33,009 nucleotides of DNA from a virus (lineage: Duplodnaviria; Caudoviricetes). A program made the position numbers and the translations under genes. Below are positions 2,087 to 22,302 of this stretch, in pieces. The first letter of the stretch is position 1. Each line of letters starts with the position of its first letter. Where the stretch lies: the IMG/VR virus record IMGVR_UViG_3300037782_000064, positions 1 to 33,009 of that record; one strand, given 5' to 3'. The notes below the pieces were generated by a model. It saw only the letters and a list, made by a program, of their open reading frames with translations. It was not told the DNA's origin and did not search any database.

Positions 2087-2181
2087 TTTGTTTTGATTAA
2101 ATAGATTATTACTACGGTTACTATGGCTGCTATCCAGATGATAACGAACCAGTCTTTTACAAATCGGTCAAATTTTCTCAT
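2083..2181 (-). CDS. 32-aa single-pass membrane peptide (not in ORF track)
   Basis: MRKFDRFVKDWFVIIWIAAIVTVVIIYLIKTK*; ATGA overlap with the next gene. Confidence 0.7.
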   Translation of the reverse strand: MRKFDRFVKDWFVIIWIAAIVTVVIIYLIKTK

Positions 2182-2268: not shown

Positions 2269-2712
2269 TTAAAAGTTGTAGTCGTAAAAACGCTCTGGCT
2301 TGTCCGACATTCTAAATCTTCTGTATTTGCCTTTTGCCCAAAAACCTCTCTTGCTCCATCGTATGCGTATGATCGGGTTTTCTGGGTTACTGGTGTATTC
2401 GTATTCCTGTCCGCTCCGATTGTCGTGGAAATGGCCTAAGAATCCGCCCGGACTGAAATTCTTTGGCGCCTTGATCTGTTTGTAATCCATTGCGCGTATT
2501 TCAACGGTCTGGTCTGAAACGACCCTAACAACTTCAAAGGGAACAATGTCAGTGTACAGTTTTTCGTTGCAATACTTCTTGACTTTTTTCCTTTCGGCCA
2601 GTTCGATTTCCATTTTTTGCTTCTGTTCCATTCTTGAAAATTCAATCCTTTTTTCGATTGGAACCTGGATCCTTTCCTTGTAAGGAAGTGAAATAAATTT
2701 TGCGTAGTCCAT
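2269..2712 (-). CDS. Hypothetical phage protein
   Basis: 147-aa ORF with tight operon spacing; ends ERFYDYNF. Confidence 0.8.
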   Translation of the reverse strand: MDYAKFISLPYKERIQVPIEKRIEFSRMEQKQKMEIELAERKKVKKYCNEKLYTDIVPFEVVRVVSDQTVEIRAMDYKQIKAPKNFSPGGFLGHFHDNRSGQEYEYTSNPENPIIRIRWSKRGFWAKGKYRRFRMSDKPERFYDYNF

Positions 2713-2714
2713 GA

Positions 2715-3080
2715 TTATTTGATATTAAAGTATTTCTTTGCTTTGCTTGCGGGTATTTCAAAAGCGACTTGCTCTTTAGGGTAGTCGTGTTTTTTGTTCC
2801 ACTCACCATTGAGCGATAAAAGCCTAAATTTTGATTTTGGATATTCAACACAAAGGTTTCTGATGTTTTCGTCGTTTTCAAGCAAATCCATCAAATCGTT
2901 TACTGCTCTTTTGTAAGATGTTGCAAAAGTCTTTCCAGTAGAAGCAGAAGTTCCACTTGGATCGTCAATTTCAAAATCTTTGTAAATTATTGGAGTCCAT
3001 TCGATAAACCCGATGTAGTCATTGTACAATCTAAAAATTGGATTTTCTTTGTTAGGCTTGATAATTGCTTTTGTTTCCAT
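2715..3080 (-). CDS. Hypothetical protein, first gene behind the promoter at 3108-3141
   Basis: 121-aa ORF with A-rich leader. Confidence 0.8.
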   Translation of the reverse strand: METKAIIKPNKENPIFRLYNDYIGFIEWTPIIYKDFEIDDPSGTSASTGKTFATSYKRAVNDLMDLLENDENIRNLCVEYPKSKFRLLSLNGEWNKKHDYPKEQVAFEIPASKAKKYFNIK

Positions 3081-3107
3081 GATATTCTTATTTGTTGTTT
3101 TGATATT

Positions 3108-3141
3108 TCAAAGATAGTAAAAATTTTGGAAGGTTCGACAA
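3108..3141 (-). promoter_or_regulatory. Bacteroidota sigma-A type early promoter, copy 1 of a 34-bp repeat
   Basis: Minus strand TTG-N22-TATCTTTG; identical to 5128-5161. Confidence 0.8.
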
Positions 3142-3181
3142 GACAATACTAATATTTTGGAAATATTTTGACCGACTTAAA

Positions 3182-3211
3182 TAGATAGGGGCCCCAAACT
3201 TATGAGGCCCC
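3182..3211 (-). terminator. Putative intrinsic terminator hairpin
   Basis: GGGGCCTCA-TAAGTT-TGGGGCCCC followed by TATCTATTT (weak U tract). Confidence 0.6.
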
Positions 3212-3913: not shown

Positions 3914-4060
3914 TTATACTGGTTTGAGGTTAGATAATTCTTCTTTTTTGTACTTTGTGTTCAGATCAACTGAATCGACATATCCGCCTTCCCTGTGCTT
4001 GTAAACCTTCACTTCTTTTCCTGTGGCCTTTAGTACGGCCTTAAATTCATTTACTGACAT
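3914..4060 (-). CDS. 48-aa hypothetical protein (not in ORF track)
   Basis: MSVNEFKAVLKATGKEVKVYKHREGGYVDSVDLNTKYKKEELSNLKPV*; fills the gap behind a promoter. Confidence 0.75.
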   Translation of the reverse strand: MSVNEFKAVLKATGKEVKVYKHREGGYVDSVDLNTKYKKEELSNLKPV

Positions 4061-4076
4061 TGTTTTGGTATTTGTT

Positions 4077-4103
4077 CAAATATACTAATTACTTAATTAT
4101 CAA
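4077..4103 (-). promoter_or_regulatory. Putative sigma-A promoter
   Basis: TATATTTG -7 element at 4077-4084; TTG only 16 nt upstream (short spacer). Confidence 0.5.
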
Positions 4104-4622: not shown

Positions 4623-4833
4623 CTGTTTTGATTTTTGTTACTCTGAATATTCCGACAGTATGTTCAGTTATCATGTCTCTTTTTAGTTGTCCGTTGAAGT
4701 CTTCCAAACGGTTTATAAAGAGTGAATAATGATTACTTTCAACAACTCCATCTGTTCTGTGGTAATTGTCCTGAATTATGATCAACGGAACAAAATTGGA
4801 ATTTGTTATTGCGTGTTTTACTACTATCTTCAT
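4609..4833 (-). CDS. Hypothetical protein
   Basis: 74-aa ORF, coupled. Confidence 0.7.
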   Translation of the reverse strand: MKIVVKHAITNSNFVPLIIIQDNYHRTDGVVESNHYSLFINRLEDFNGQLKRDMITEHTVGIFRVTKIKTDDNK

Positions 4834-5106
4834 TTATCTGGAAATAAAGGTTATTTCATAAAGGCCACGTATCTTGAAGGTAATCCTGTCCTGTCCAGAC
4901 TCCATGGCCTTGGTAAAATGTTTGTCCCTGTATTTCTTACCGAATTTTTCAGCATACTTTCCTGCCGAAATAAGGTTTGAATAGCCGGGCGCTTCGTCTG
5001 CGGTTCTCCATCTGATAAGGAAATTCTTGTTGATCTCAGATCTTGAAGGAACGTCCATTTTTGGAAATTGAAAATTTGTTCTGCTTGTTCTGATTGCTAC
5101 TTCCAT
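4834..5106 (-). CDS. Hypothetical protein, first gene behind the promoter at 5128-5161
   Basis: 90-aa ORF with A-rich leader. Confidence 0.8.
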   Translation of the reverse strand: MEVAIRTSRTNFQFPKMDVPSRSEINKNFLIRWRTADEAPGYSNLISAGKYAEKFGKKYRDKHFTKAMESGQDRITFKIRGLYEITFISR

Positions 5107-5127
5107 GATATTTATTGTTTTGATGTC

Positions 5128-5161
5128 TCAAAGATAGTAAAAATTTTGGAAGGTTCGACAA
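5128..5161 (-). promoter_or_regulatory. Sigma-A type early promoter, copy 2 of the 34-bp repeat
   Basis: TTTG-N22-TATCTTTG; identical to 3108-3141. Confidence 0.8.
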
Positions 5162-5182
5162 ACAGTTGCTAAAAAAATAGCA

Positions 5183-5855: not shown

Positions 5856-6316
5856 ACTCTGTTAGATCTTCGTACCGAGTAGCCCATCGAATAGGCCCAC
5901 TCTGGATTGTTCTCGATTTGTTCATGTGCGCTCCTGCAAACTGGAAGAAAGAACCTTGTATCTACAAGCAAAGAAATCCCGTTTTCCTTGGCCCACTGAT
6001 CCGCATAACCTTCCCTTCCCATTTTGTGATGAATTTCAGTCGCCATGCAATTTCCATGCACACGGCAAGATCTGTTGATAGGGTCTTTGAAAAACTCCTT
6101 GCGAATTCTGGAATACTCTTGGTTCTTCCTTGACTGTTTTTCTGAAATCCTTTTGATTCTGGACCGCTTAATTTTTGTTTTCCTGACTTCTCCGGCATCC
6201 TTTTTGTTCTTTCGTGTACAATTATAGGAACAATACTTTTGCGTCGATAGGAATGGCGTGAATACATTCTGGCAATCTTTGTCCGCGCAAGTCCGTTCTT
6301 TTGTCCTTTTCTTCAT
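5852..6316 (-). CDS. Zn-finger plus HNH-like endonuclease (NinG-like architecture)
   Basis: N-terminal C-x4-C...QKYCSYNC; C-terminal C..C...EIHHKMGR...LPVCRSAHEQI. Confidence 0.75.
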   Translation of the reverse strand: MKKRTKERTCADKDCQNVFTPFLSTQKYCSYNCTRKNKKDAGEVRKTKIKRSRIKRISEKQSRKNQEYSRIRKEFFKDPINRSCRVHGNCMATEIHHKMGREGYADQWAKENGISLLVDTRFFLPVCRSAHEQIENNPEWAYSMGYSVRRSNRV

Positions 6317-6330
6317 GTTTTGATAAAAGT

Positions 6331-8551: not shown

Positions 8552-8727
8552 ATTCCAAGTGAGGGTTTCAAAATATTTGCTGTCTCACGATCTACCTTTC
8601 TTTCAAGGTTCTTGGATTTCTCCAACTGTTGGATCTTGACTTCTGGGGCAACTCCCTTCAGCCTAAAATATTTTGTCTGTTCGATCCTCATTTGGTTCAC
8701 AAGGTTTGCGTATTGAATTAAGTCCAT
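8548..8727 (-). CDS. 59-aa hypothetical protein (not in ORF track)
   Basis: MDLIQYANLVNQMRIEQTKYFRLKGVAPEVKIQQLEKSKNLERKVDRETANILKPSLGI*; ATGA overlap with RuvC. Confidence 0.8.
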   Translation of the reverse strand: MDLIQYANLVNQMRIEQTKYFRLKGVAPEVKIQQLEKSKNLERKVDRETANILKPSLGI

Positions 8728-8729
8728 GA

Positions 8730-9722
8730 TTATTGTTTTGATTCTTCAGATGGCTCTAAATTAAGCATTTTCATTGTAATCTCGTCAAATTCTTTAGCCA
8801 CATTTGGTTGGTGAACTTCTGGTTTGATCTCTACAAGTCGGTCAACAAGTTTGCTGTACTCGTTCTCTGGGTCAAGTTCCTTCAGCCTATCGTTAAAAAT
8901 ATCCAGATAAAGAATGAGGTTCATATCTCGCCTGTAACGGCTTATTATGGTCACAAGTTGGTCTTTATCCATTTCAGCGCAATTCGCTCGTAGATATGCA
9001 CGAAATCCTTTGTCCGAGTTCAAAAACGTGCTTTCCTTCTTCCTTAAAATCTCTGGCTGCTCCTTTTTGTCCTCGCCCACTCCCTTGAACATAGCCTCGA
9101 ATACTTTTGGATCCATTTTGTCCCTTGAAAGATTGAAATGTTTTTCCTTATCGTTGGAAATGCTCATGGTATGGGCAACGCTGCACCTATCGGACCAATA
9201 AACCTCTGACCATTGGATAACTTTTTCTGGGGAAAGGGTTTCATAAAACTGGCCGTAAAATCCAGACTTCGCTTGCCTGAAGAACAAATAAAGATCCTCT
9301 GGCGTCCAAGAATGGTTCCTGTGAAGTTCTTCAGCAATAAAATCGATTTGGTGGGGCTGCAATTTATTCTTTGCGTTCACCGAGTTCAGAAAGTCGATTA
9401 TCCAAAGTTTGAACTGTCCGACAATCTGTACTCTGGGATAATGCTTCTTGATCAACGCATACTGGTCTTCCTTGGGAAGTTTCTTCAGTTCTTTTACATC
9501 GTACAACTCCATGCAGATCTTTATCGCTGCATCCTTACCTACCTTCCTGTACGATTGTTGAGGTTTCTCCAATAGGTTCTTTACAGTCCGTATTTCATCC
9601 TTCCTTATCGGATCCAGTTTAATTGGACTGACTTCCAAAAGACTCTTGGATAACTTGTCGAGTATAGTCGTTGATACGCTGCTGTTGCCCGTCGTCTGAA
9701 GTTCCATTTTTTGCTGCCCCAT
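8730..9722 (-). CDS. Putative replication accessory protein (DUF6633-like, lambda-P position)
   Basis: Follows the initiator; DLYLFFRQAKSGFYGQFYETLSPEKVIQW motif. Confidence 0.55.
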   Translation of the reverse strand: MGQQKMELQTTGNSSVSTTILDKLSKSLLEVSPIKLDPIRKDEIRTVKNLLEKPQQSYRKVGKDAAIKICMELYDVKELKKLPKEDQYALIKKHYPRVQIVGQFKLWIIDFLNSVNAKNKLQPHQIDFIAEELHRNHSWTPEDLYLFFRQAKSGFYGQFYETLSPEKVIQWSEVYWSDRCSVAHTMSISNDKEKHFNLSRDKMDPKVFEAMFKGVGEDKKEQPEILRKKESTFLNSDKGFRAYLRANCAEMDKDQLVTIISRYRRDMNLILYLDIFNDRLKELDPENEYSKLVDRLVEIKPEVHQPNVAKEFDEITMKMLNLEPSEESKQ

Positions 9723-10437
9723 GATTCTTGCTTTGAGTTATTAAGGTTGATATTTGTTTGCGTAGCTTGTTGGTGCTGAATATGTTCCCTTTCCAAAAGT
9801 CGGAAATTTTTAGGAAATCGTATGCAATCCTGAACTGTTGCACTGTAACATTGTCCCGTTCCATCATCAATCGGATTGGATCAACAAAGTTTTTCCAAGT
9901 CGCTTTGTCAAGGTCTGAAGTAGGAGCCCCACTGTCTTTCCTGTTTTTCCTGAAGAGTTTCCACCACATAAGGGCAATCTCGAAATATTTCCGATCCGCA
10001 GCATTTTCGATTTCATCGATTTTTATTTCTTCAACTCTTTTTTTGTAATAACTCTTTATTTGTAAGGAATCTTTATTTATAGTACGTTCAGGTTTTCTGA
10101 AGATGGGATTTTCTGAAGGTGGGATTTTCTGAATTTGGGCCTTGGTTCGATTTTCTGAATTAGGCTCGTTTTGTAGCCAATAAGTACCAGAACCGTCGTG
10201 ATGCTTTTCGTAGATTATCCATCCTGTTTCCTTCAGTTCATCCAATGCTGAAGTAATTCCGGCTCTTCCATCCTTCAGCGATTTTGACATCGATCTCAAA
10301 GTAAAGTTCCATCCTTCAGGTCTGCTCGCCATGTGTGCAAAAAGTCCCATGGCTTTAAGGGACAAATCACCGCTCTGAAGCAATTCATTGGGAATTTGTG
10401 TAAAGGGCACTACTGCCCGTTGCAATCTTTCTTTCAT
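9619..10437 (-). CDS. Phage replication initiator (N-terminal HTH, lambda-O-like C terminus)
   Basis: FTQIPNELL...LSLKAMGLF...PEGWNF...ALDELKETGWI; C-terminal FWKGNIFSTNKLRKQ; internal iterons. Confidence 0.85.
   Translation of the reverse strand: MKERLQRAVVPFTQIPNELLQSGDLSLKAMGLFAHMASRPEGWNFTLRSMSKSLKDGRAGITSALDELKETGWIIYEKHHDGSGTYWLQNEPNSENRTKAQIQKIPPSENPIFRKPERTINKDSLQIKSYYKKRVEEIKIDEIENAADRKYFEIALMWWKLFRKNRKDSGAPTSDLDKATWKNFVDPIRLMMERDNVTVQQFRIAYDFLKISDFWKGNIFSTNKLRKQISTLITQSKNHGAAKNGTSDDGQQQRINDYTRQVIQESFGSQSN
10041..10160. repeat. Putative replication origin: four iterons plus an AT-rich tract inside the initiator gene
   Basis: TTTTCTGAA at 10093, 10109, 10125 and 10151 (two as GGGATTTTCTGAA); AT-rich 10041-10082. 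Confidence 0.75.
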
Positions 10438-10460
10438 TTGTTTTGATTTTTTGTGGACAA

Positions 10461-11177: not shown

Positions 11178-12143
11178 TTACATTCTTGGTTTGTAATAAG
11201 CGGGAACGTCCATGCTGAAATAACTCAACGCTTCATCCCTTACAAAATCATACGATTTGTGCCAAAGGTTATTTTCATGGCAATACTTGAAGGAAAGAAG
11301 AAGGTTCTGGATTTCTTCCTGTGCCCCTGTGATCATGTCCTGCGTCGCCCTGAATACGTTAACGTTGTAAGGTGGGCTCGTCTCAACAACGATATGTACA
11401 AAAGATGGGAATTTCCATTTGTATTTGTAGCCCATAGTATAGACTCCCGTTTGTCCATTGTACCAGAAATTGATCACTTGCCTTGGCCAATCAAGTTGGT
11501 GTCCCTTGTTGACTTGGACTGTTTTCAGGTCGGCTATGAAATATTCATGGTCGCGTGGTTCCTCTTCTGACTCCATATCGATAAAGCCCCGAAGGAAATA
11601 TCCAGTTTCCCTATGTTTGAACCTTAACGGTACCTGAAATCGCTTTGTCCGCTCCAAATAGAACCGCGAGTCATCGTTCTTCCATACAGATTCAGCAATC
11701 TCGTACCCTTTCTCGAAGGTTTCTTCATCAACTACCAAAAGACCTTGGTTAAGTTCCTCATAAAGTTCCTTGATCGCTTTTCCTTCATTCGATTTAGCAC
11801 TGACCTTCTCCGGCATTACGAATATCTTTTTGTGAAATCCCTTTTGATTGGTGACAATTTCATCTGCTACGCTTCCAAGGATCAAAGAAGGTGTTTTTGG
11901 TTTCTTTTCCCTTGTCAGGTATTCGATAAATGAAATGGGCGACTCCCTGAAGGATTTCAGGCTCGAATATGAAAGACCATCCTTGTCAAGTTTTTCCTGA
12001 ACAATCGATTTGAAAGTATCTGGATGCCTTGACTCTTTTACGATTTCGATTTTTATATCGATTTTTTTACGCTGCTCTTTTATCTTCTTCTTGACGTCCT
12101 TCAGATGCAACTTCTTGAATTCTTCTACTGATTTTACTGCCAT
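11178..12143 (-). CDS. PD-(D/E)XK exonuclease (DUF3799/RecE-like), RecT partner
   Basis: LSYSSLKSF...SP, LILGS, RGFID...IADLKT, YNGQTGVY, FVHIVVETSPPY. Confidence 0.85.
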   Translation of the reverse strand: MAVKSVEEFKKLHLKDVKKKIKEQRKKIDIKIEIVKESRHPDTFKSIVQEKLDKDGLSYSSLKSFRESPISFIEYLTREKKPKTPSLILGSVADEIVTNQKGFHKKIFVMPEKVSAKSNEGKAIKELYEELNQGLLVVDEETFEKGYEIAESVWKNDDSRFYLERTKRFQVPLRFKHRETGYFLRGFIDMESEEEPRDHEYFIADLKTVQVNKGHQLDWPRQVINFWYNGQTGVYTMGYKYKWKFPSFVHIVVETSPPYNVNVFRATQDMITGAQEEIQNLLLSFKYCHENNLWHKSYDFVRDEALSYFSMDVPAYYKPRM

Positions 12144-13003
12144 TACTTTTTGGTTTTTTGAGGTTTCTTTTCTTCAGGGTCGGCATCCTGTTCCAGTTCG
12201 ACTTTTTTCTTCGCGACTGCCGATCTGAAATCCTTGTCCTTGTGGTACAACGAATTTTCGTTTCCCGCTGCCCACGAAAGAAGTTCATCCAAGTCCGTGA
12301 AAGTATTGATATGATCCAGGATTGAATCTGGCGCCTTTACGTCATCCAATTTGGAAAGATCGTAGTTGTCATTGTCAATACTGTCCATGTGGCCTGTAAT
12401 GTCATCGAAATGCGATTTGCAGGCACGTTTGATTACCGACTTCCTTACCATCCGATCGTACCAAGCGTCCCAAACATTCTGGGTATTGGCTACTTTCTTC
12501 ATCTTCTCGATGTCGGCAGGACCTAAAAGTTCAAGGAATTCCCCCCTGTCATTCTTGATGATGCAATATGCTCCCGCAAGGTTTTCAGGGGTTATCTGTG
12601 AGAACGGGTTTACTATTTCGTGCGTGTAACGAATTCTTCCGTCCCTTTTTGAGAAACTGAATTCATCTTCCTTCTTCACAAGCTGAACATCAATCTGTGA
12701 CTCTGGATAAACCATTAGCATCTTGTTCTTGTATGCTTGGTAATCGTATTGAGCGGAAGGTTTTCCTTTGAAGGCAATCGTAATGTGATCCCCGTCGATG
12801 TACATTCCGTCCTTGGCCACTTTCTTGAAAAGGTTCACAACTGATTCTGCTGTCATCCTACTGAAATCATAGAACTTCAGTCCGTTGGTTCCCTTTTTCT
12901 TTTCGGTTCCAAGTTCATTCAGGTAATTGATGAAAACGTTCACGTTCTCCTTTGGGTAATCCTTCAGGGCTTTTTTGATCCCCGGCAAGTCATTTAATGT
13001 CAT
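12143..13003 (-). CDS. recT: RecT-family single-strand annealing protein
   Basis: DYQAY, QLVKKEDEFSF, GAYCII, WDAWYDRMVRKSVIKRACK. Confidence 0.9.
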   Translation of the reverse strand: MTLNDLPGIKKALKDYPKENVNVFINYLNELGTEKKKGTNGLKFYDFSRMTAESVVNLFKKVAKDGMYIDGDHITIAFKGKPSAQYDYQAYKNKMLMVYPESQIDVQLVKKEDEFSFSKRDGRIRYTHEIVNPFSQITPENLAGAYCIIKNDRGEFLELLGPADIEKMKKVANTQNVWDAWYDRMVRKSVIKRACKSHFDDITGHMDSIDNDNYDLSKLDDVKAPDSILDHINTFTDLDELLSWAAGNENSLYHKDKDFRSAVAKKKVELEQDADPEEKKPQKTKK

Positions 13004-13004
13004 G

Positions 13005-13223
13005 TTACTTCTTTTTTGTTTTGATAAGGTCTTTCATATCCACACCAAGAAACTCGGAAAGTTTCAATATGTGGTTAAGTGTCTTCAGGCTTTCACCGTT
13101 TTCCCAATTGGTCAACGTCTGTCTGGCGATTCCTGTTTCCTTTGCGAGTTGGTTCAACGACATATCATCGTTTTCCCGTTTGTTCCGTTTGGCCAAAGCC
13201 TCGGAAAGTGCGAGTTTGATCAT
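13005..13223 (-). CDS. XRE/Cro-like HTH regulator
   Basis: MSLNQLAKETGIARQTLTNWENG...ILKLSEFLGV; no S24 peptidase domain. Confidence 0.92.
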   Translation of the reverse strand: MIKLALSEALAKRNKRENDDMSLNQLAKETGIARQTLTNWENGESLKTLNHILKLSEFLGVDMKDLIKTKKK

Positions 13224-13286
13224 AAAATGATTTTTAGATTAAAAATGTAGGAAGATGGCTTGTCCACGATCCTGTTTTGATAATGC

Positions 13287-13318
13287 CAAAGATAGTAAAA
13301 ATATTGGAATGGTGTAAA
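13287..13318 (-). promoter_or_regulatory. Sigma-A type promoter of the HTH/RecT early operon
   Basis: TATCTTTG at 13287-13294; 22/23 identity with the core of the 34-bp repeat. Confidence 0.75.
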
Positions 13319-13326
13319 TTTTTTGG

Positions 13327-13357
13327 AAAAATAAAAGGGGCCAGAACAGCCCCTTTC
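13327..13357 (-). terminator. Intrinsic terminator ending the late operon / candidate sRNA
   Basis: AAAGGGGCT-GTTCT-GGCCCCTTT followed by TATTTTT. Confidence 0.85.
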
Positions 13358-13399
13358 GATTTATCAAAACAAATTTCATATCATGGACGACATGAAGTT
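13327..13399 (-). ncRNA. Candidate trans-acting antisense small RNA (~70 nt)
   Basis: Bounded by its own promoter and terminator; body CUUCAUGUCGUCCAUGAUAUGAAAUUUGUUUUGAUAAA is complementary to the leaders/start codons of several phage genes. Confidence 0.6.
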
Positions 13400-13402
13400 C
13401 AA

Positions 13403-13433
13403 CAAATGTACTACAAAAATACGATACCCCCAA
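13403..13433 (-). promoter_or_regulatory. Sigma-A type promoter for the candidate sRNA
   Basis: TTG (13431-13433)-N20-TACATTTG (13403-13410), consensus Bacteroidota spacing. Confidence 0.65.
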
Positions 13434-13824
13434 CAACGCATATAACAATACCTATCAGTGATCCGTCTCGAATTCCCTTGACGTATTTCTTCCTTCCCTG
13501 TATCACTTGCAACTCAACTTCGTTTTCGAGGTTCATGTTTATAGAGTCCTTCAACGGTATCAATACAGTTTCGTAATTGTTGATGACAGATTTGAATTTG
13601 TCGTTCGACCCCCTCAAAGTGCTGATTGCAAATCTCAACCTTGTGGTGTCCATTTTTAGAAGATCCAATTCTGCCTTAGATTGTTCATAACTCATGAAGA
13701 TGTTCCAGATTGAGTCCCTGTTTACCAAGATCATATCTTCACTGGTTTGCCCGTATGTACTCACGGATAAGAGAGTCACGGACAGAAGTAGGAAGATTTT
13801 TGAAATTATTTTTGCGCCTTTCAT
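13411..13824 (-). CDS. Spanin-like second component (signal peptide, coiled coil, C-terminal TM)
   Basis: Start MKGAK (13824); FLLLSVTLLSVSTYG|Q signal; C-terminal LIGIVICVVGGIVFL; overlaps the Rz-like gene by 86 bp. Confidence 0.6.
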   Translation of the reverse strand: MKGAKIISKIFLLLSVTLLSVSTYGQTSEDMILVNRDSIWNIFMSYEQSKAELDLLKMDTTRLRFAISTLRGSNDKFKSVINNYETVLIPLKDSINMNLENEVELQVIQGRKKYVKGIRDGSLIGIVICVVGGIVFL

Positions 13825-14099: not shown

Positions 14100-14531
14100 T
14101 CAGAATGAGTTCTTGATTACGATTTTTACTAACCCCGCATCTTGAAGACATCTATGGAGAAGTTCCAAGGTGTCCCGACTGTTTGTGACGTCAATATATC
14201 CGTCCTTGTCAATATCCTTCAGTTTAATACCGGGCGCAATGCAACCTTCTAATTGGTGCCAATTATTCGCTACGTGGATCTTGCACTCCGATCTGTTGGG
14301 TACGTTGTAAAGTTCCCATAGTTTCATTTTGAAAGCAGGGGAATATTCAAAGTACATCGGATAGGTTCCTTCAGGAACGCAACTTACCCTCGGTTCATTG
14401 TTTCTCCAACCGCGTTCAACGGTCGAGCAAGAGAACACTGGTTTTCCTTCAGGATCAAAAAGGACCATGTTACCAAAGGTCTGATTTTCGTCCTGCCAAT
14501 GTCGCCAAAGTTTTAATACATAATCTTTCAT
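14100..14531 (-). CDS. DUF5675-family putative endolysin
   Basis: TFG...TVERGWRNNEPRVSCVPEGTY...VPNRSECKIHVAN...EGCIAPG. Confidence 0.85.
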   Translation of the reverse strand: MKDYVLKLWRHWQDENQTFGNMVLFDPEGKPVFSCSTVERGWRNNEPRVSCVPEGTYPMYFEYSPAFKMKLWELYNVPNRSECKIHVANNWHQLEGCIAPGIKLKDIDKDGYIDVTNSRDTLELLHRCLQDAGLVKIVIKNSF

Positions 14532-18655: not shown

Positions 18656-19440
18656 TATTGAGCCACGTATTTCTGAAGGTTTATCGCATCTACATAGATT
18701 TCACCAGAAGTGCTTTCAAACATTATTTCAACTCGAAGGTTCGATATGTCCTTTATAGTGTCCAAAACTACACTTTGCCAAGAAGACCCTGTTGAGTAAT
18801 TTTTTTCGATTGGGAAGGAACGGTAAACAATTCTTTCCTGTCCTTCAATTTCAACGAACAAAACTCTTCCAGAAGCAGAAGGACTTTTTGAAATATCCAT
18901 GGAAAAAAGATATATTCCAGATTCATTTACTGCTTCAAGTGATGAAAAAGCAAATCCGCCATTATTGCCAGGATCCAGTTCGAGGCCGTAATTTCCATCA
19001 GTTGATCTTCCAGTTACAGACAACCCAACTCCTTCTTCTGAAGACCAAGAAGTTGTTCCAGAGCCTTCATCACCTTTTTTTGATACATCTGGTATATTGT
19101 ATAGGTTTTCATCTAAAAGTACCAGAAATGACTTGTTTTCAACTGTGTCGGCCTGAATTGAGTCGATTATAGTATCGTTTTGAACCGAGTCCCTGTGTTG
19201 GATGATCGGATATGACCTTAGAACGTAATTGATGGAGTCCTTGTAAACACTTTCGCTCGTTTTTGAATTGTAATATTTAATCGAGTCGAATTTTTTCTGC
19301 CATTGAGAAGATACTTTGAGGTACAATTGCTCCATGTCCTCTGATTTCTGCCAAACATTGTTCGTTGATACTGTAAGGGCTATACACCCACCGATTGCAA
19401 CCAAAAGAGCTGCGATAAGAATTTTGGATAAATTGTTCAT
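18655..19440 (-). CDS. Membrane-anchored protein with a C-terminal CBM-like jelly roll
   Basis: N-terminal hydrophobic helix; GIYLFSMDI...WQSV...LRVEI...IYVDAINLQK. Confidence 0.55.
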   Translation of the reverse strand: MNNLSKILIAALLVAIGGCIALTVSTNNVWQKSEDMEQLYLKVSSQWQKKFDSIKYYNSKTSESVYKDSINYVLRSYPIIQHRDSVQNDTIIDSIQADTVENKSFLVLLDENLYNIPDVSKKGDEGSGTTSWSSEEGVGLSVTGRSTDGNYGLELDPGNNGGFAFSSLEAVNESGIYLFSMDISKSPSASGRVLFVEIEGQERIVYRSFPIEKNYSTGSSWQSVVLDTIKDISNLRVEIMFESTSGEIYVDAINLQKYVAQ

Positions 19441-19461
19441 GTCGTTTTGTTTTTACGCAAA

Positions 19462-21555
19462 TTACGTAATTCTTACGAACCAATAATCAACCGTTGATCC
19501 ATTGTATTCCAGTTCGAGGTACATATCTGTGTTCGCTTGAAAGTCTGGACAATAAAGTTTCCTTACCCCTGTGCCACCATCTATTGTAGGCTCGCTTGCT
19601 GCGTTGATCAAAACACGGGCTTTTCCACCAAGTTGTTTGTTAGCGGTCGTGTATGCAGTAGCACTGTTGGCTGAACCCATGTCCTTGTAGTTCATTCCAG
19701 TAGTGGAAAGGTCTATTACGGTTCCCCCTGAAGTAGCAACTGGTTCCGTTGGATTTACCGCGTCGGTTTTTATATACCAAACGTTGGCATCAACAGATCC
19801 GAGGGCATCAAATTGTGCAGTAGTACCTTTCCAGTAAGCCGTAATCAATTCAGGTGATCCGTCAATAGGTTTCAAAATTCCAGACTCCAAAGATTCAGCA
19901 GTAATAAAACCATCAGTATTTATGAGGGTTCTTATCGGTGTTTTGTCAAAATCTTGGTACTCCAACATAGGTTGGCTTCGAGCAATATCGGCTGTCTTTC
20001 TAATGACAATTTTCTTGGTATGCCTAAGCAACAATCTCAATCCTTCATCATCATCAGTAGCATATAAACTGCTCGCAAAGTCTATGGCAGAACCCGCGTC
20101 GTTTGATCCACCATGGATTACAGTGGTATGGTAACTTCTCATTACCGTACCATTGTTGAATTGGTTCTCGATGGTATTGTAAACATCACCAAAGGCCAAT
20201 CGAACACCCTCACCAACCGCGTTCATGTTTGTAAAACCGATAACCCTTGGGCTTCCCGCACTCGAACCGTTAACGCTAACTTCGAGGTTTCCAGTAAAAG
20301 GTACAGAACCGTCGCTCTTGACGTCCCCTGTCCCGGCAGAAACCCATTCGTAATTGTAATCGGTGTTATCGATTTTTGCAAGCACTTGTCCTGTTGTTCC
20401 GCCTGCGGGTGTCCCTATTCCGTCTGCTCCGTCATTTCCTGCGGGACCTTGCGGACCAACCAAGGAAGTTCCCGTTGGCCAAGAACCTGAAGCCTTCGGG
20501 CCAAATATTGTGTTTGTTGAGGTATTGATATAAAAATTTCCGTCGTTTCCTTCAGTTGTGGGATCTACTGAACCATAAAGAACTGCATTTCCATCTTGTC
20601 CGTCTGCTCCGTCGGCTCCGTCAGCCCCTATCAAAGAGGTTCCACTCCCCCAACTTCCTGAAGTTTTTGGACCAAAAATTTCATAGGAAGATACATTGAT
20701 GTAAAAATCACCGTCATTACCTTCAGTGGTCGGGTTTACTGAACCTGACAAAACACCGTTTCCGTCTGATCCATCCGCTCCATCCGCTCCAAGGTTGAAT
20801 ATCGCAGATCCCCAAGATCCTGAAGTCTTTGGGCCGTACATTTCTGAAGTGGCAGTGTTGATATAAAAATCACCGTCATTACCAATTCCGTTATCTGGAA
20901 CTGTTGTACCGTTCAATATTGTTTTTCCATCAGTTCCAGAAGCCCCCTGTGGACCAGTTGGACCCACTTCTCCCTGTGGGCCTTGCGCCCCTTCTGCTCC
21001 CTGTGGGCCTACCAAAGAGGTTCCAGATCCCCAAGAACCTGAAGTTTTTGGACCAAAAATCTCGTTGGAAGATGTATTTATGTAGAAATCACCATCTATG
21101 CCCTCTGTTGTTGGATTTACAGAACCATTTAGAACTGAATATCCCCTTGGGCCTTGTGTTCCCTGTGGGCCTTGTTCGCCTTGGATTCCCTGTTCGCCCT
21201 GTGGACCAGTCGGACCTATTGGGCCTTGTTCGCCCTGGATCCCTTGAATTCCCTGTTGTCCCTGTGGACCAGTGGCTCCCTGTGGACCCTGTGGACCTTG
21301 CGGACCAGTCGCGCCCTGCTCTCCCTGTAAAGGAAAAGGATTTCCCCAAAGACCATTTGTTTTTGGACCATACAAATTATGTGTATCGGTATCGATATAA
21401 AAATCGTTGTCCTGCCCTATGTTGGAAGCGGGTGCCCCCGTGCCGTTAAAAAGATCACCGTTTGATGGGTCTATTCCAGAACCAAAAGAGGCTCCCGACT
21501 CAAATATTTCAATGGTGATCACATCACCTTGCTCTGTAACTATTGTATTGGACAT
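19462..21555 (-). CDS. Collagen-like tail fibre protein
   Basis: Gly-X-Y tracts alternating with repeated knobs; [12 protein letters not shown] motif. Confidence 0.88.
20457..21460 (-). repeat. Five ~43-aa knob repeats separated by collagen tracts
   Basis: LxGxxxP...GxDxDFYIxT...xGPKxxGxW present five times. Confidence 0.85.
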
Positions 21556-21965: not shown

Positions 21966-22250
21966 TTATTCCGTAGTAAAAATATCTGCCGGCATACGTT
22001 CCCAATAATAAATCGTGTAATCGACCTCACTTCCTTCATCCCTGACTCCCTGAACAATAGTTTGGGTTTCTGGATAGTCGCAAGATGGTTCCGTGTCTGG
22101 TTCTTCAGGAAACTTTTGCCATATCATAACACCGCTTTCCCATCTTTCTATTTTGGTGTTCACCATTTCATAATATTGGCAGTCTTCCTCTTCCTTGGTA
22201 CAACTGAAGATGATCAAGGAAATCCCGATAAGCAAAAATATCTTTTTCAT
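21966..22250 (-). CDS. Small acidic lipoprotein (moron)
   Basis: MKKIFLLIGISLIIFS|CTKEEED lipobox with K/E-rich export signal; start moved to 22250. Confidence 0.85.
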   Translation of the reverse strand: MKKIFLLIGISLIIFSCTKEEEDCQYYEMVNTKIERWESGVMIWQKFPEEPDTEPSCDYPETQTIVQGVRDEGSEVDYTIYYWERMPADIFTTE

Positions 22251-22270
22251 GTCTCTTTGTTTTGATGTTC

Positions 22271-22302
22271 CAAAATTATAGCATAGAAACGGATTTTCCA
22301 AA
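22271..22302 (-). promoter_or_regulatory. Sigma-A type promoter of the lipoprotein gene
   Basis: TTTG-N20-TAATTTTG. Confidence 0.75.

Follow-up and report, generated by a model that had tools for sequence, protein, structure and literature searches.

A candidate antisense RNA predicted to pair with many gene starts of its own phage

The 33,009-base stretch of DNA analysed here (hereafter the window), which is the entire record and a fragment of a tailed phage, holds what appears to be a real, conserved, and phage-specific antisense RNA, a candidate with many predicted targets and a putative variant of antisense control of phage development. On balance, we favor the reading that the locus is a phage small RNA (sRNA) gene whose product would pair with a tag in early messages, block their translation, and so serve as a delayed off-switch in lytic growth. 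That one antisense RNA is directed against many gene starts of its own phage had been proposed in an earlier note on this DNA, and the proposal is strongly supported by conservation of the unit, by strand-specific G·U covariation, and by preference for own over foreign starts.

The predicted small RNA unit and its surroundings

All 46 annotated ORFs of the window lie on the minus strand. From the high coordinates, the gene order runs through tail genes, a lysis region with a DUF5675 gene, a 72-aa HTH gene, and recT, followed by exonuclease, initiator-like, RuvC-like, HNH/NinG-like, and ssb genes; head and terminase-large genes are absent from the 46 annotated ORFs. The TAnnTTTG promoter boxes, the Shine–Dalgarno (SD)-free starts (an SD-like 4-mer is present in 0 of 47 window gene starts), and the tail-protein matches point to a Bacteroidota host. 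The best tail-protein matches in blastn and tblastn searches of cultured phages were to Riemerella, Bacteroides, and Porphyromonas phages at ~30% identity. Assembly of the locus is backed by a single contig of run X2, which covers 13111–13424 with zero differences.

Among three DNA runs, the best holder of the window was a pond metagenome, which is possibly where the DNA comes from. A minority variant in run X1 carries five differences each in 11406–11496 and 13657–13714, the latter also seen in X2, and none of these differences lies within the RNA unit. At 2–1511, a TET-associated glycosyltransferase gene (PF20691) adjoins a ParB-like gene, possibly as a DNA-modification module.

The unit runs from 13433 to 13327 on the minus strand in the order promoter, hairpin, single-stranded seed, and terminator. 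The promoter box of Bacteroidota lies at −12 to −5 (PMC9723704), and the predicted +1 of the sRNA is therefore 13398. The unit and the gene that precedes it are composed as follows.

13411–13824, minus strand: last lysis-region gene; its stop codon adjoins the sRNA −7 box
13403–13433, minus strand: predicted sigma-A-type (Bacteroidota) promoter; TTG at 13433–13431, a 20-nt spacer, and TACATTTG at 13410–13403
13327–13398, minus strand: small RNA, predicted 72 nt; a 41-nt body plus the terminator
13375–13396, minus strand: predicted 5′ hairpin; 8-bp stem and loop GUCCAU (13388–13383), complementary to AUGGAC
13360–13373, minus strand: U-rich seed, complementary to the leader tag (T)TATCAAAACA(AA)
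13327–13357, minus strand: predicted intrinsic terminator; hairpin 13357–13333 plus a U-run, where the lysis transcript would end too

The sRNA −7 box starts immediately 3′ of the stop codon of ORF 13411–13824, and the unit, which is codirectional with the HTH operon, lies 0 to 12 nt past the stop of the last lysis-region gene in the window and in six of the six relatives measured. This last gene gave no family match above noise, and its role in lysis is suggested by its position after the DUF5675 gene (14100–14531). The fold of 13325–13402 has a z value of −4.6, and the GACATGAA block is the opposite arm of the sRNA's own hairpin. With its own putative promoter, structured 5′ part, single-stranded seed, and intrinsic terminator, the unit has the makeup of a trans-encoded, multi-target sRNA gene, as judged from sequence. 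The promoter and the terminator are located where the earlier note had placed them, with the sequences it gave; its claim of a discrete unit also holds, with the body now 41 rather than ~45 nt and the RNA ~72 rather than 70 nt.

A search of the window with all Rfam families, including the C4 and P4 CI-type models, returned zero matches above the gathering threshold. The palindrome at 13375–13396 was also considered as a DNA operator and set aside, a second copy being unseen among window matches of at least 9 nt.

Predicted targets at gene starts

The 9-mer ATCAAAACA, which is complementary to the sRNA, occurs in 11 copies on the coding strand versus 0.65 expected (Poisson p ~1e-10). An ATG lies within 24 nt of nine of these copies, and the remaining two are in the HTH leader and in the interior of gene 11160. 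Four copies begin at promoter +1 or +2 (13294, 5136, 3116, and 22278), and among promoter sites immediately 5′ of an early-type gene that has an exact copy, the tag stands at +1/+2 in four of four. Six copies are found just before internal starts, four of these within upstream coding sequence.

Matches of at least 9 nt to the 41-nt body were present in 12 of 47 window gene starts versus 29 of 1245 background starts, the latter taken from other phage loci. These 12 comprise nine of 31 early and three of 16 late starts (Fisher p 9e-8 for early versus background). The 9-mer ATCAAAACA is present in 0 of the 1245 background starts. Shuffled RNAs (n = 500) matched a mean of 1.0 and a maximum of 10 starts, and none reached the 12 observed. 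The plus strand also holds a lone ATCAAAACA at 19607, inside a tail-fibre gene, so that the 9-mer alone can be a chance product. The same 9-mer is found downstream of promoters in many unrelated phages, and the tag may therefore also act alone in transcription or ribosome loading.

The nearest and presumably primary target is the leader of the HTH–recT operon, for which the following features are relevant.

13287–13294, minus strand: −7 box of the first early promoter (HTH–recT operon); position kept in L325, L001, L002, L344, and L405
13262–13283, minus strand: conserved primary target, the 5′-terminal part of the HTH-operon leader; the energy-optimised duplex is 22 bp long and free of mismatches, and it includes 3 G·U
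13220–13267, minus strand: 15-codon upstream ORF (uORF) with a GUG start, presumably translated; its stop overlaps the HTH start (ATGA)
13005–13223, minus strand: HTH gene, Cro/C1-type, 72 aa (PF01381, E 3.6e-14)
12143–13027, minus strand: recT-like gene; 13-nt seed site at 13027–13015, within the end of the HTH gene

Of the 22 contiguous bases in the predicted HTH-leader duplex, 13 pair with the seed; the other 9 pair with the loop block, which covers the GUG of the uORF. The duplex has an energy of −24.5 kcal/mol, or −9.7 after opening costs, as the leader has its own hairpin. In the counterpart from the relative L325 (see below), there is only a 3-codon AUG uORF without overlap with the HTH start. 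A TTCCAAWAWTT repeat recurs on the minus strand at 13328, 13309, 5151, 3162, 3131, and 2250; the first five of these copies stand a short distance upstream of the three early promoters. It is a candidate operator for the HTH protein or an extended promoter element.

The other predicted sites, like the first, are all on the minus strand at places separate from the sRNA gene.

5102–5136, minus strand: gene 5106, early promoter and two-block target (10+10 nt); best net binding, −16.3
3076–3116, minus strand: gene 3080, early promoter and two-block target (11+10 nt); net −15.4
8722–8742, minus strand: gene 8727, two-block target (10+9 nt); tag within upstream coding sequence
2707–2724, minus strand: gene 2712, target by sequence match (7+9 nt)
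22246–22278, minus strand: lipoprotein-like gene 22250 in the tail region, own promoter and target; longest match 11
10436–10447, minus strand: replication-initiator-like gene 10437, seed site; 12-nt match
6316–6327, minus strand: HNH/NinG-like gene 6316, seed site; 12-nt match
4624–4632, minus strand: gene 4622, seed site; 9-nt match
2087–2097, minus strand: gene 2086, seed site; 11-nt match
19436–19453, minus strand: late gene 19440, weaker candidate site (8+10 nt); net −8.3

Net binding energies of the sites are modest (−8 to −16), and several sites are merely 9 to 13 nt of A-U pairs. The longest-match lengths quoted in the earlier note were reproduced in 11 of 11 cases, and the second blocks it described were seen as well. 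Its pairing with the HTH-operon leader is upheld, the 11-nt match given there being replaced by the 22-bp duplex. Many early starts are among the predicted targets, as it had proposed; they are not exclusively early, given that the mean duplex energy is −13.2 for early and −14.0 for late starts.

Several observations concern the neighborhoods of these sites. The segments 5102–5165 and 3076–3145 are near-identical promoter-plus-leader cassettes of ~60 nt that stand before unrelated genes. The gene at 21966–22278, which we take to encode a lipoprotein from its N-terminal sequence and motif, has an early-type promoter and the tag, is inserted among tail genes, and is possibly an exclusion moron; its L325 homolog (42%) lacks the tag. 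A strong hairpin at 3188–3211, with a TAnnTTTG box in its loop, lies within the 270-nt gap before the 3116 promoter. There are also two small ORFs of less than 50 aa. The one at 3914–4084 (49 codons from 4060) has a promoter and a one-mismatch tag, and the hydrophobic one at 2083–2181 (32 codons from 2181) has the tag encoded at its end.

Covariation and specificity among relatives

A metagenome profile search yielded the relative L325, of which 16.6 of 38.6 kb was examined and which shares 15 genes in order with the window at 35 to 68% identity. In the L325 unit, the loop is identical and the stem retains eight of eight pairs, two of them changed on both sides and three on one side via G·U. 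Because the three stem G·U pairs would be mismatches on the opposite strand, the RNA strand is fixed as minus. The terminator covaries between the two phages too. The L325 seed differs from that of the window, and the adjacent L325 leader differs along with it: the predicted duplex comprises 20 bp in two blocks (11+9 bp) with, as in the window, no mismatch on the leader side and an energy of −27.3, and the 2 G·U it contains, like the 3 in the window, are counted in energy-optimised duplexes, a procedure that favors G·U. Between the two intermolecular duplexes, one A-U pair is changed to G-C, which is a compensatory change. When RNAs and leaders of the two phages are swapped, the values of −24.5 and −27.3 drop to −15.4 and −16.8. 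The recT and initiator starts of L325 are predicted targets too, the initiator ortholog with a two-block site.

The exact subtype has two members only, the window and L325. No third was recovered by two IMG/VR pattern scans (one covering 21 of 64 parts) or one endolysin scan, and neither the 120 matches nor the 18 loci from the pattern scans included a case with promoter and terminator together. Close relatives were likewise absent from the results of a RecT single-protein scan and an exact 25-nt pattern search of IMG/VR, an endolysin alignment scan, and blastn and tblastn searches of cultured phages.

More distant relatives were collected through recT. From 137 recT loci with enough upstream DNA, we obtained 31 promoter pairs, six of which have a terminator between the promoters (the window, L325, L001, L002, L344, and L405). 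The number of shuffles, of 500, that matched or beat the pairing with the next leader was 0, 0, 0, 0, 2, and 1 for the six units. Two further units, in L329 and L054, were added by eye. A second seed is common to L001, L002, L344, L405, and L329 at the same lysis/HTH–recT junction, and the set therefore represents about three independent seed types, not eight. The TAnnTTTG box is located 5 to 12 nt past the upstream stop codon in six of six relatives measured. In a control set picked without regard to complementarity, 389 loci gave 24 promoter–terminator–promoter units, and the six units at the lysis/HTH–recT junction rank 1 to 6 of the 24, with at most 1 of 200 shuffles reaching their pairing versus at least 6 of 200 for the remaining 18.

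The relatives also repeat the arrangement of many forward sites and one reversed copy. In G001, a complete distant relative of 46.8 kb with the second seed, the complement of that seed follows five promoters and one reversed copy lies in the RNA; the remaining promoter boxes, including those of structural genes, are without it. Four forward sites were found in L329 (three at promoter-like boxes), two in L405, and seven in L054, with one reversed copy each, within the unit.

Own-versus-foreign specificity was scored by counting sites at −10 kcal/mol or better with opening costs included. The window RNA has such sites at eight of 48 own starts, 0 of 25 L325 starts, and 0 of 69 G001 starts, versus seven of 400 in the background. 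The G001 RNA has them at eight of 69 own starts, one of 48 window starts, and one of 25 L325 starts, and the L325 RNA at two of 25 own starts, 0 of 48 window starts, and 0 of 69 G001 starts. Each of the three predicted RNAs prefers the starts of its own phage, and seed and targets appear to covary across relatives. The covariation that the earlier note had named as a check is thus seen in L325 and in the phages with the second seed.

A consensus fold of five second-subtype RNAs recovered only the terminator, with the 5′ hairpins unaligned; folded singly (n = 4), each has a 5′ hairpin. An HTH gene follows the unit in the window and L325, and Pfam HTH matches were obtained in L002, L344, and L054. 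Rfam searches of seven related loci returned nothing at the unit, and their only two matches were DUF805b motifs (RF02914) between early genes of L054 (510–547 and 2712–2746). L405 (contig JALZUP010000026.1) has Bacteroidota-type promoters and is filed in a Robiginitomaculum MAG, where it is likely mis-binned.

Proposed action, alternatives, and known systems

Pairing between the sRNA and the tagged messages is very probable, and repression, given pairing, is a highly probable outcome. The host sigma-A polymerase would make the sRNA from infection onward, and pairing would be nucleated by the U-rich seed and the GUCCAU loop. The resulting duplex would mask the A-rich stretch and the AUG, which these ribosomes presumably require instead of a Shine–Dalgarno sequence. 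In Flavobacterium johnsoniae, adenines at −3, −6, −12, and −13 and low structure matter for initiation (PMC6847099), so that a duplex that hides these positions together with the AUG is expected to keep ribosomes from loading. In the case of the first leader, use of the uORF to which the HTH gene is coupled would be prevented. A short structured sRNA would accumulate as early mRNAs turn over, late lysis transcripts that stop at the sRNA terminator could contribute more RNA, and the combination of a constitutive promoter and a stable short RNA would produce a delayed common shut-off.

We regard such delayed shut-off in lytic growth as more likely than a replacement of CI. The latter is weakened by G001, in which six-frame searches gave no match to a tyrosine integrase (PF00589) or an S24 repressor (PF00717) and in which neither function was found among the 57 of 71 ORFs scanned, those left out being mostly structural; this inference on lifestyle draws on G001 as the one complete relative, the window and L325 being fragments. 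The earlier idea that the unit occupies the place of a CI gene and confers RNA-based immunity is not borne out, since it follows a lysis stop, is codirectional with the HTH operon, and has in G001 a relative without integrase or S24 repressor. Early shut-off, which the same note had offered as the other option, is the better fit. A broader proposal, which is possible if a little on the doubtful side, is that early mRNAs carry a private barcode by which one sRNA silences the whole early regulon in place of a protein repressor, in a widespread and undescribed arrangement with lock-and-key seeds.

In specific terms, the immunity idea of the earlier note would mean, as with C4 of P1 and P7, an antisense RNA that silences a resident, non-integrated phage (a carrier state) and excludes kin with the same tag, the seeds defining immunity groups. 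The constitutive host-type promoter, the position just upstream of the first early promoter, the phage-specific variation of the seeds, and a set of targets that includes the first early leader, the initiator, and recT are all compatible with this role. We consider it unlikely in view of the gene content of G001 noted above and because the ParB-like gene (873–1511) adjoins a DNA-modification glycosyltransferase, not parA. It is very unlikely that the active molecule is instead a 3′ end released by processing of the late lysis mRNA, by which late transcription would shut off early translation. In every case measured, the unit does serve as the 3′ UTR of the final lysis-region gene, and looser anti-leader tracts lacking a consensus promoter precede terminators elsewhere (e.g., L226, L203, L230, and L279). 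However, the window and six of six relatives keep the TAnnTTTG box in noncoding DNA at a suitable distance, a feature needless for a processed end; processing and primary transcription are in any case compatible routes to the RNA.

The two remaining alternatives deny that the RNA acts by pairing. In one, the HTH protein would bind ATCAAAACA as an asymmetric site in DNA (an operator or stoperator), or a protein would bind it as an RNA tag, with the reversed copy being one more such site. Its placement at promoter +1/+2 and between genes, always in one orientation, agrees with this, as do the single reversed copy 80 to 125 bp upstream of the first tag and the HTH genes that follow the unit in the window and L325 (with the Pfam HTH matches in L002, L344, and L054). 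This reading is highly improbable because it leaves unexplained the promoter, the strand-specific G·U stem, the invariant anti-AUG loop, and the wobble-only deviations, and TTCCAAWAWTT upstream of early promoters is a better operator candidate. The least probable reading takes the locus for a gene start left behind in inverted orientation, or for the leader of a plus-strand 20-codon ORF (13383–13445), that happens to adjoin an ordinary terminator and has no regulatory role. The plus strand does resemble a gene start, leaders of this kind are frequent among Bacteroidota phages, and the copy at 19607 is a chance occurrence of the 9-mer. Yet neutral sequence would not shift its seed together with its own leaders at 45% RecT identity, and this reading is largely refuted by the covariation. 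The ORF, which had been named as a rival from the outset, fails in that no TAnnTTTG box is found near the site on the plus strand, it is conserved in L325 only at its first residues, which are forced by the loop, and the hairpin pairs break.

The preferred reading, an sRNA that pairs with tagged early messages, has partial parallels among known antisense RNAs. C4 pairs at two sites around icd, which is coupled to ant, and sar, OOP, and aQ are encoded opposite their targets. For the P4 CI RNA, pairing involves two complementary sequences that lie apart in the leader of the phage's own early/replication operon (PMC4825925), and the window RNA is likewise predicted to use two blocks, seed and loop (13+9 bp), against the leader of an early operon. 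As described for P4, the CI RNA is processed from the transcript that it controls, between seqA and seqC, brings about premature termination, and maintains lysogeny (PMC4825925); in contrast, the window RNA would be made from a promoter of its own and end at its own terminator, both upstream of the target promoter, and would have about a dozen dispersed targets. The C4 RNAs of P1 and P7 are trans-acting antisense RNAs with a phage-specific pairing sequence and a target leader that has a small upstream ORF, and the account of them in PMC8201110 gives one target operon (icd-ant) in a temperate plasmid phage. Unlike C4, the window RNA is predicted to address many starts in an SD-free host, has no sequence or Rfam similarity to it, and comes from a phage in which no antirepressor or integrase was seen. 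P22 sar, lambda OOP, and aQ are antisense RNAs that lower the expression of regulatory genes of their own phage, sar by blocking translation initiation, and the relevant sections of PMC12197685 describe one target each (ant, cII, and Q). A block of initiation is proposed here as for sar, whereas the window RNA lies on the same strand as its targets and would pair in trans with a dispersed tag.

The literature covered, consisting of titles and abstract openings with few subscription papers, yielded no account of an RNA of this type from Bacteroidota phages, the table of 38 unassigned phage sRNAs in PMC12197685 lying outside the comparison. Against the single targets described there, a reader of a tag on a whole regulon would represent a different mode of timing. 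The setting is a phylum whose ribosomes ignore the Shine–Dalgarno sequence and in which phage gene control is little studied. The tag/anti-tag relationship offers a sequence rule for early regulons in uncultured phages, and the RNA suggests an orthogonal knock-down part for Bacteroidota.

A further parallel is the Start-Associated Sequence (SAS) of cluster K mycobacteriophages, a short asymmetric repeat with a 13-bp consensus and a Shine–Dalgarno core that stands in one orientation where many nonstructural genes start, whereas its only reversed copy lies away from any gene start (PMC3203893). In the parts of that report that concern SAS, its authors left undecided whether an RNA or a protein binds it, and no RNA partner is proposed (PMC3203893). 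The window tag is similar in having 11 copies in one orientation, nine of them near an ATG, with one reversed intergenic copy and one reversed copy in coding sequence; it differs in sequence and in that 0 of the 47 window starts have an SD-like 4-mer. The logic of a barcode plus an sRNA may account for the reversed SAS copy, and the question from 2011 of what binds SAS becomes testable, given the same pattern of many forward copies and one reversed copy. In phage Anaya (L556:26871–26883), the reversed SAS, present once, follows a hairpin in an intergenic gap of 385 nt and is a candidate antisense RNA.

Beyond this phage group, other phages, the four named above included, have anti-leader tracts ahead of terminators but no consensus promoter for them, and some of the tracts match half of their own phage's starts. 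Such tracts were noted at L279:12847–12892, L279:17049–17094, L230:15546, L230:13389, L017:11545–11590, L028:263–308, L226:12541, and L203:7582. Among 149 terminators from 53 SD-free phage groups, a set that was partly collected by motif and that includes the window, 12 match at least 15% of own starts and 0 do so on foreign starts, and a complement-only control gave five high scores versus the 12. Many high scores from the first terminator detector were opposite-strand genes, which were removed by an ORF filter. The notion that all terminators carry anti-leaders was rejected, as the overall own-versus-foreign difference is not significant (Wilcoxon p 0.30), and we treat a general pre-terminator pattern as a lead only. 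RAP44 has one weak anti-leader tract (six of 61 starts). On the minus strand at L039:11312, L074:4711, and L046:8388, anti-Shine–Dalgarno tracts precede terminators, two of them with an anti-AUG, which suggests that the design perhaps extends beyond SD-free hosts.
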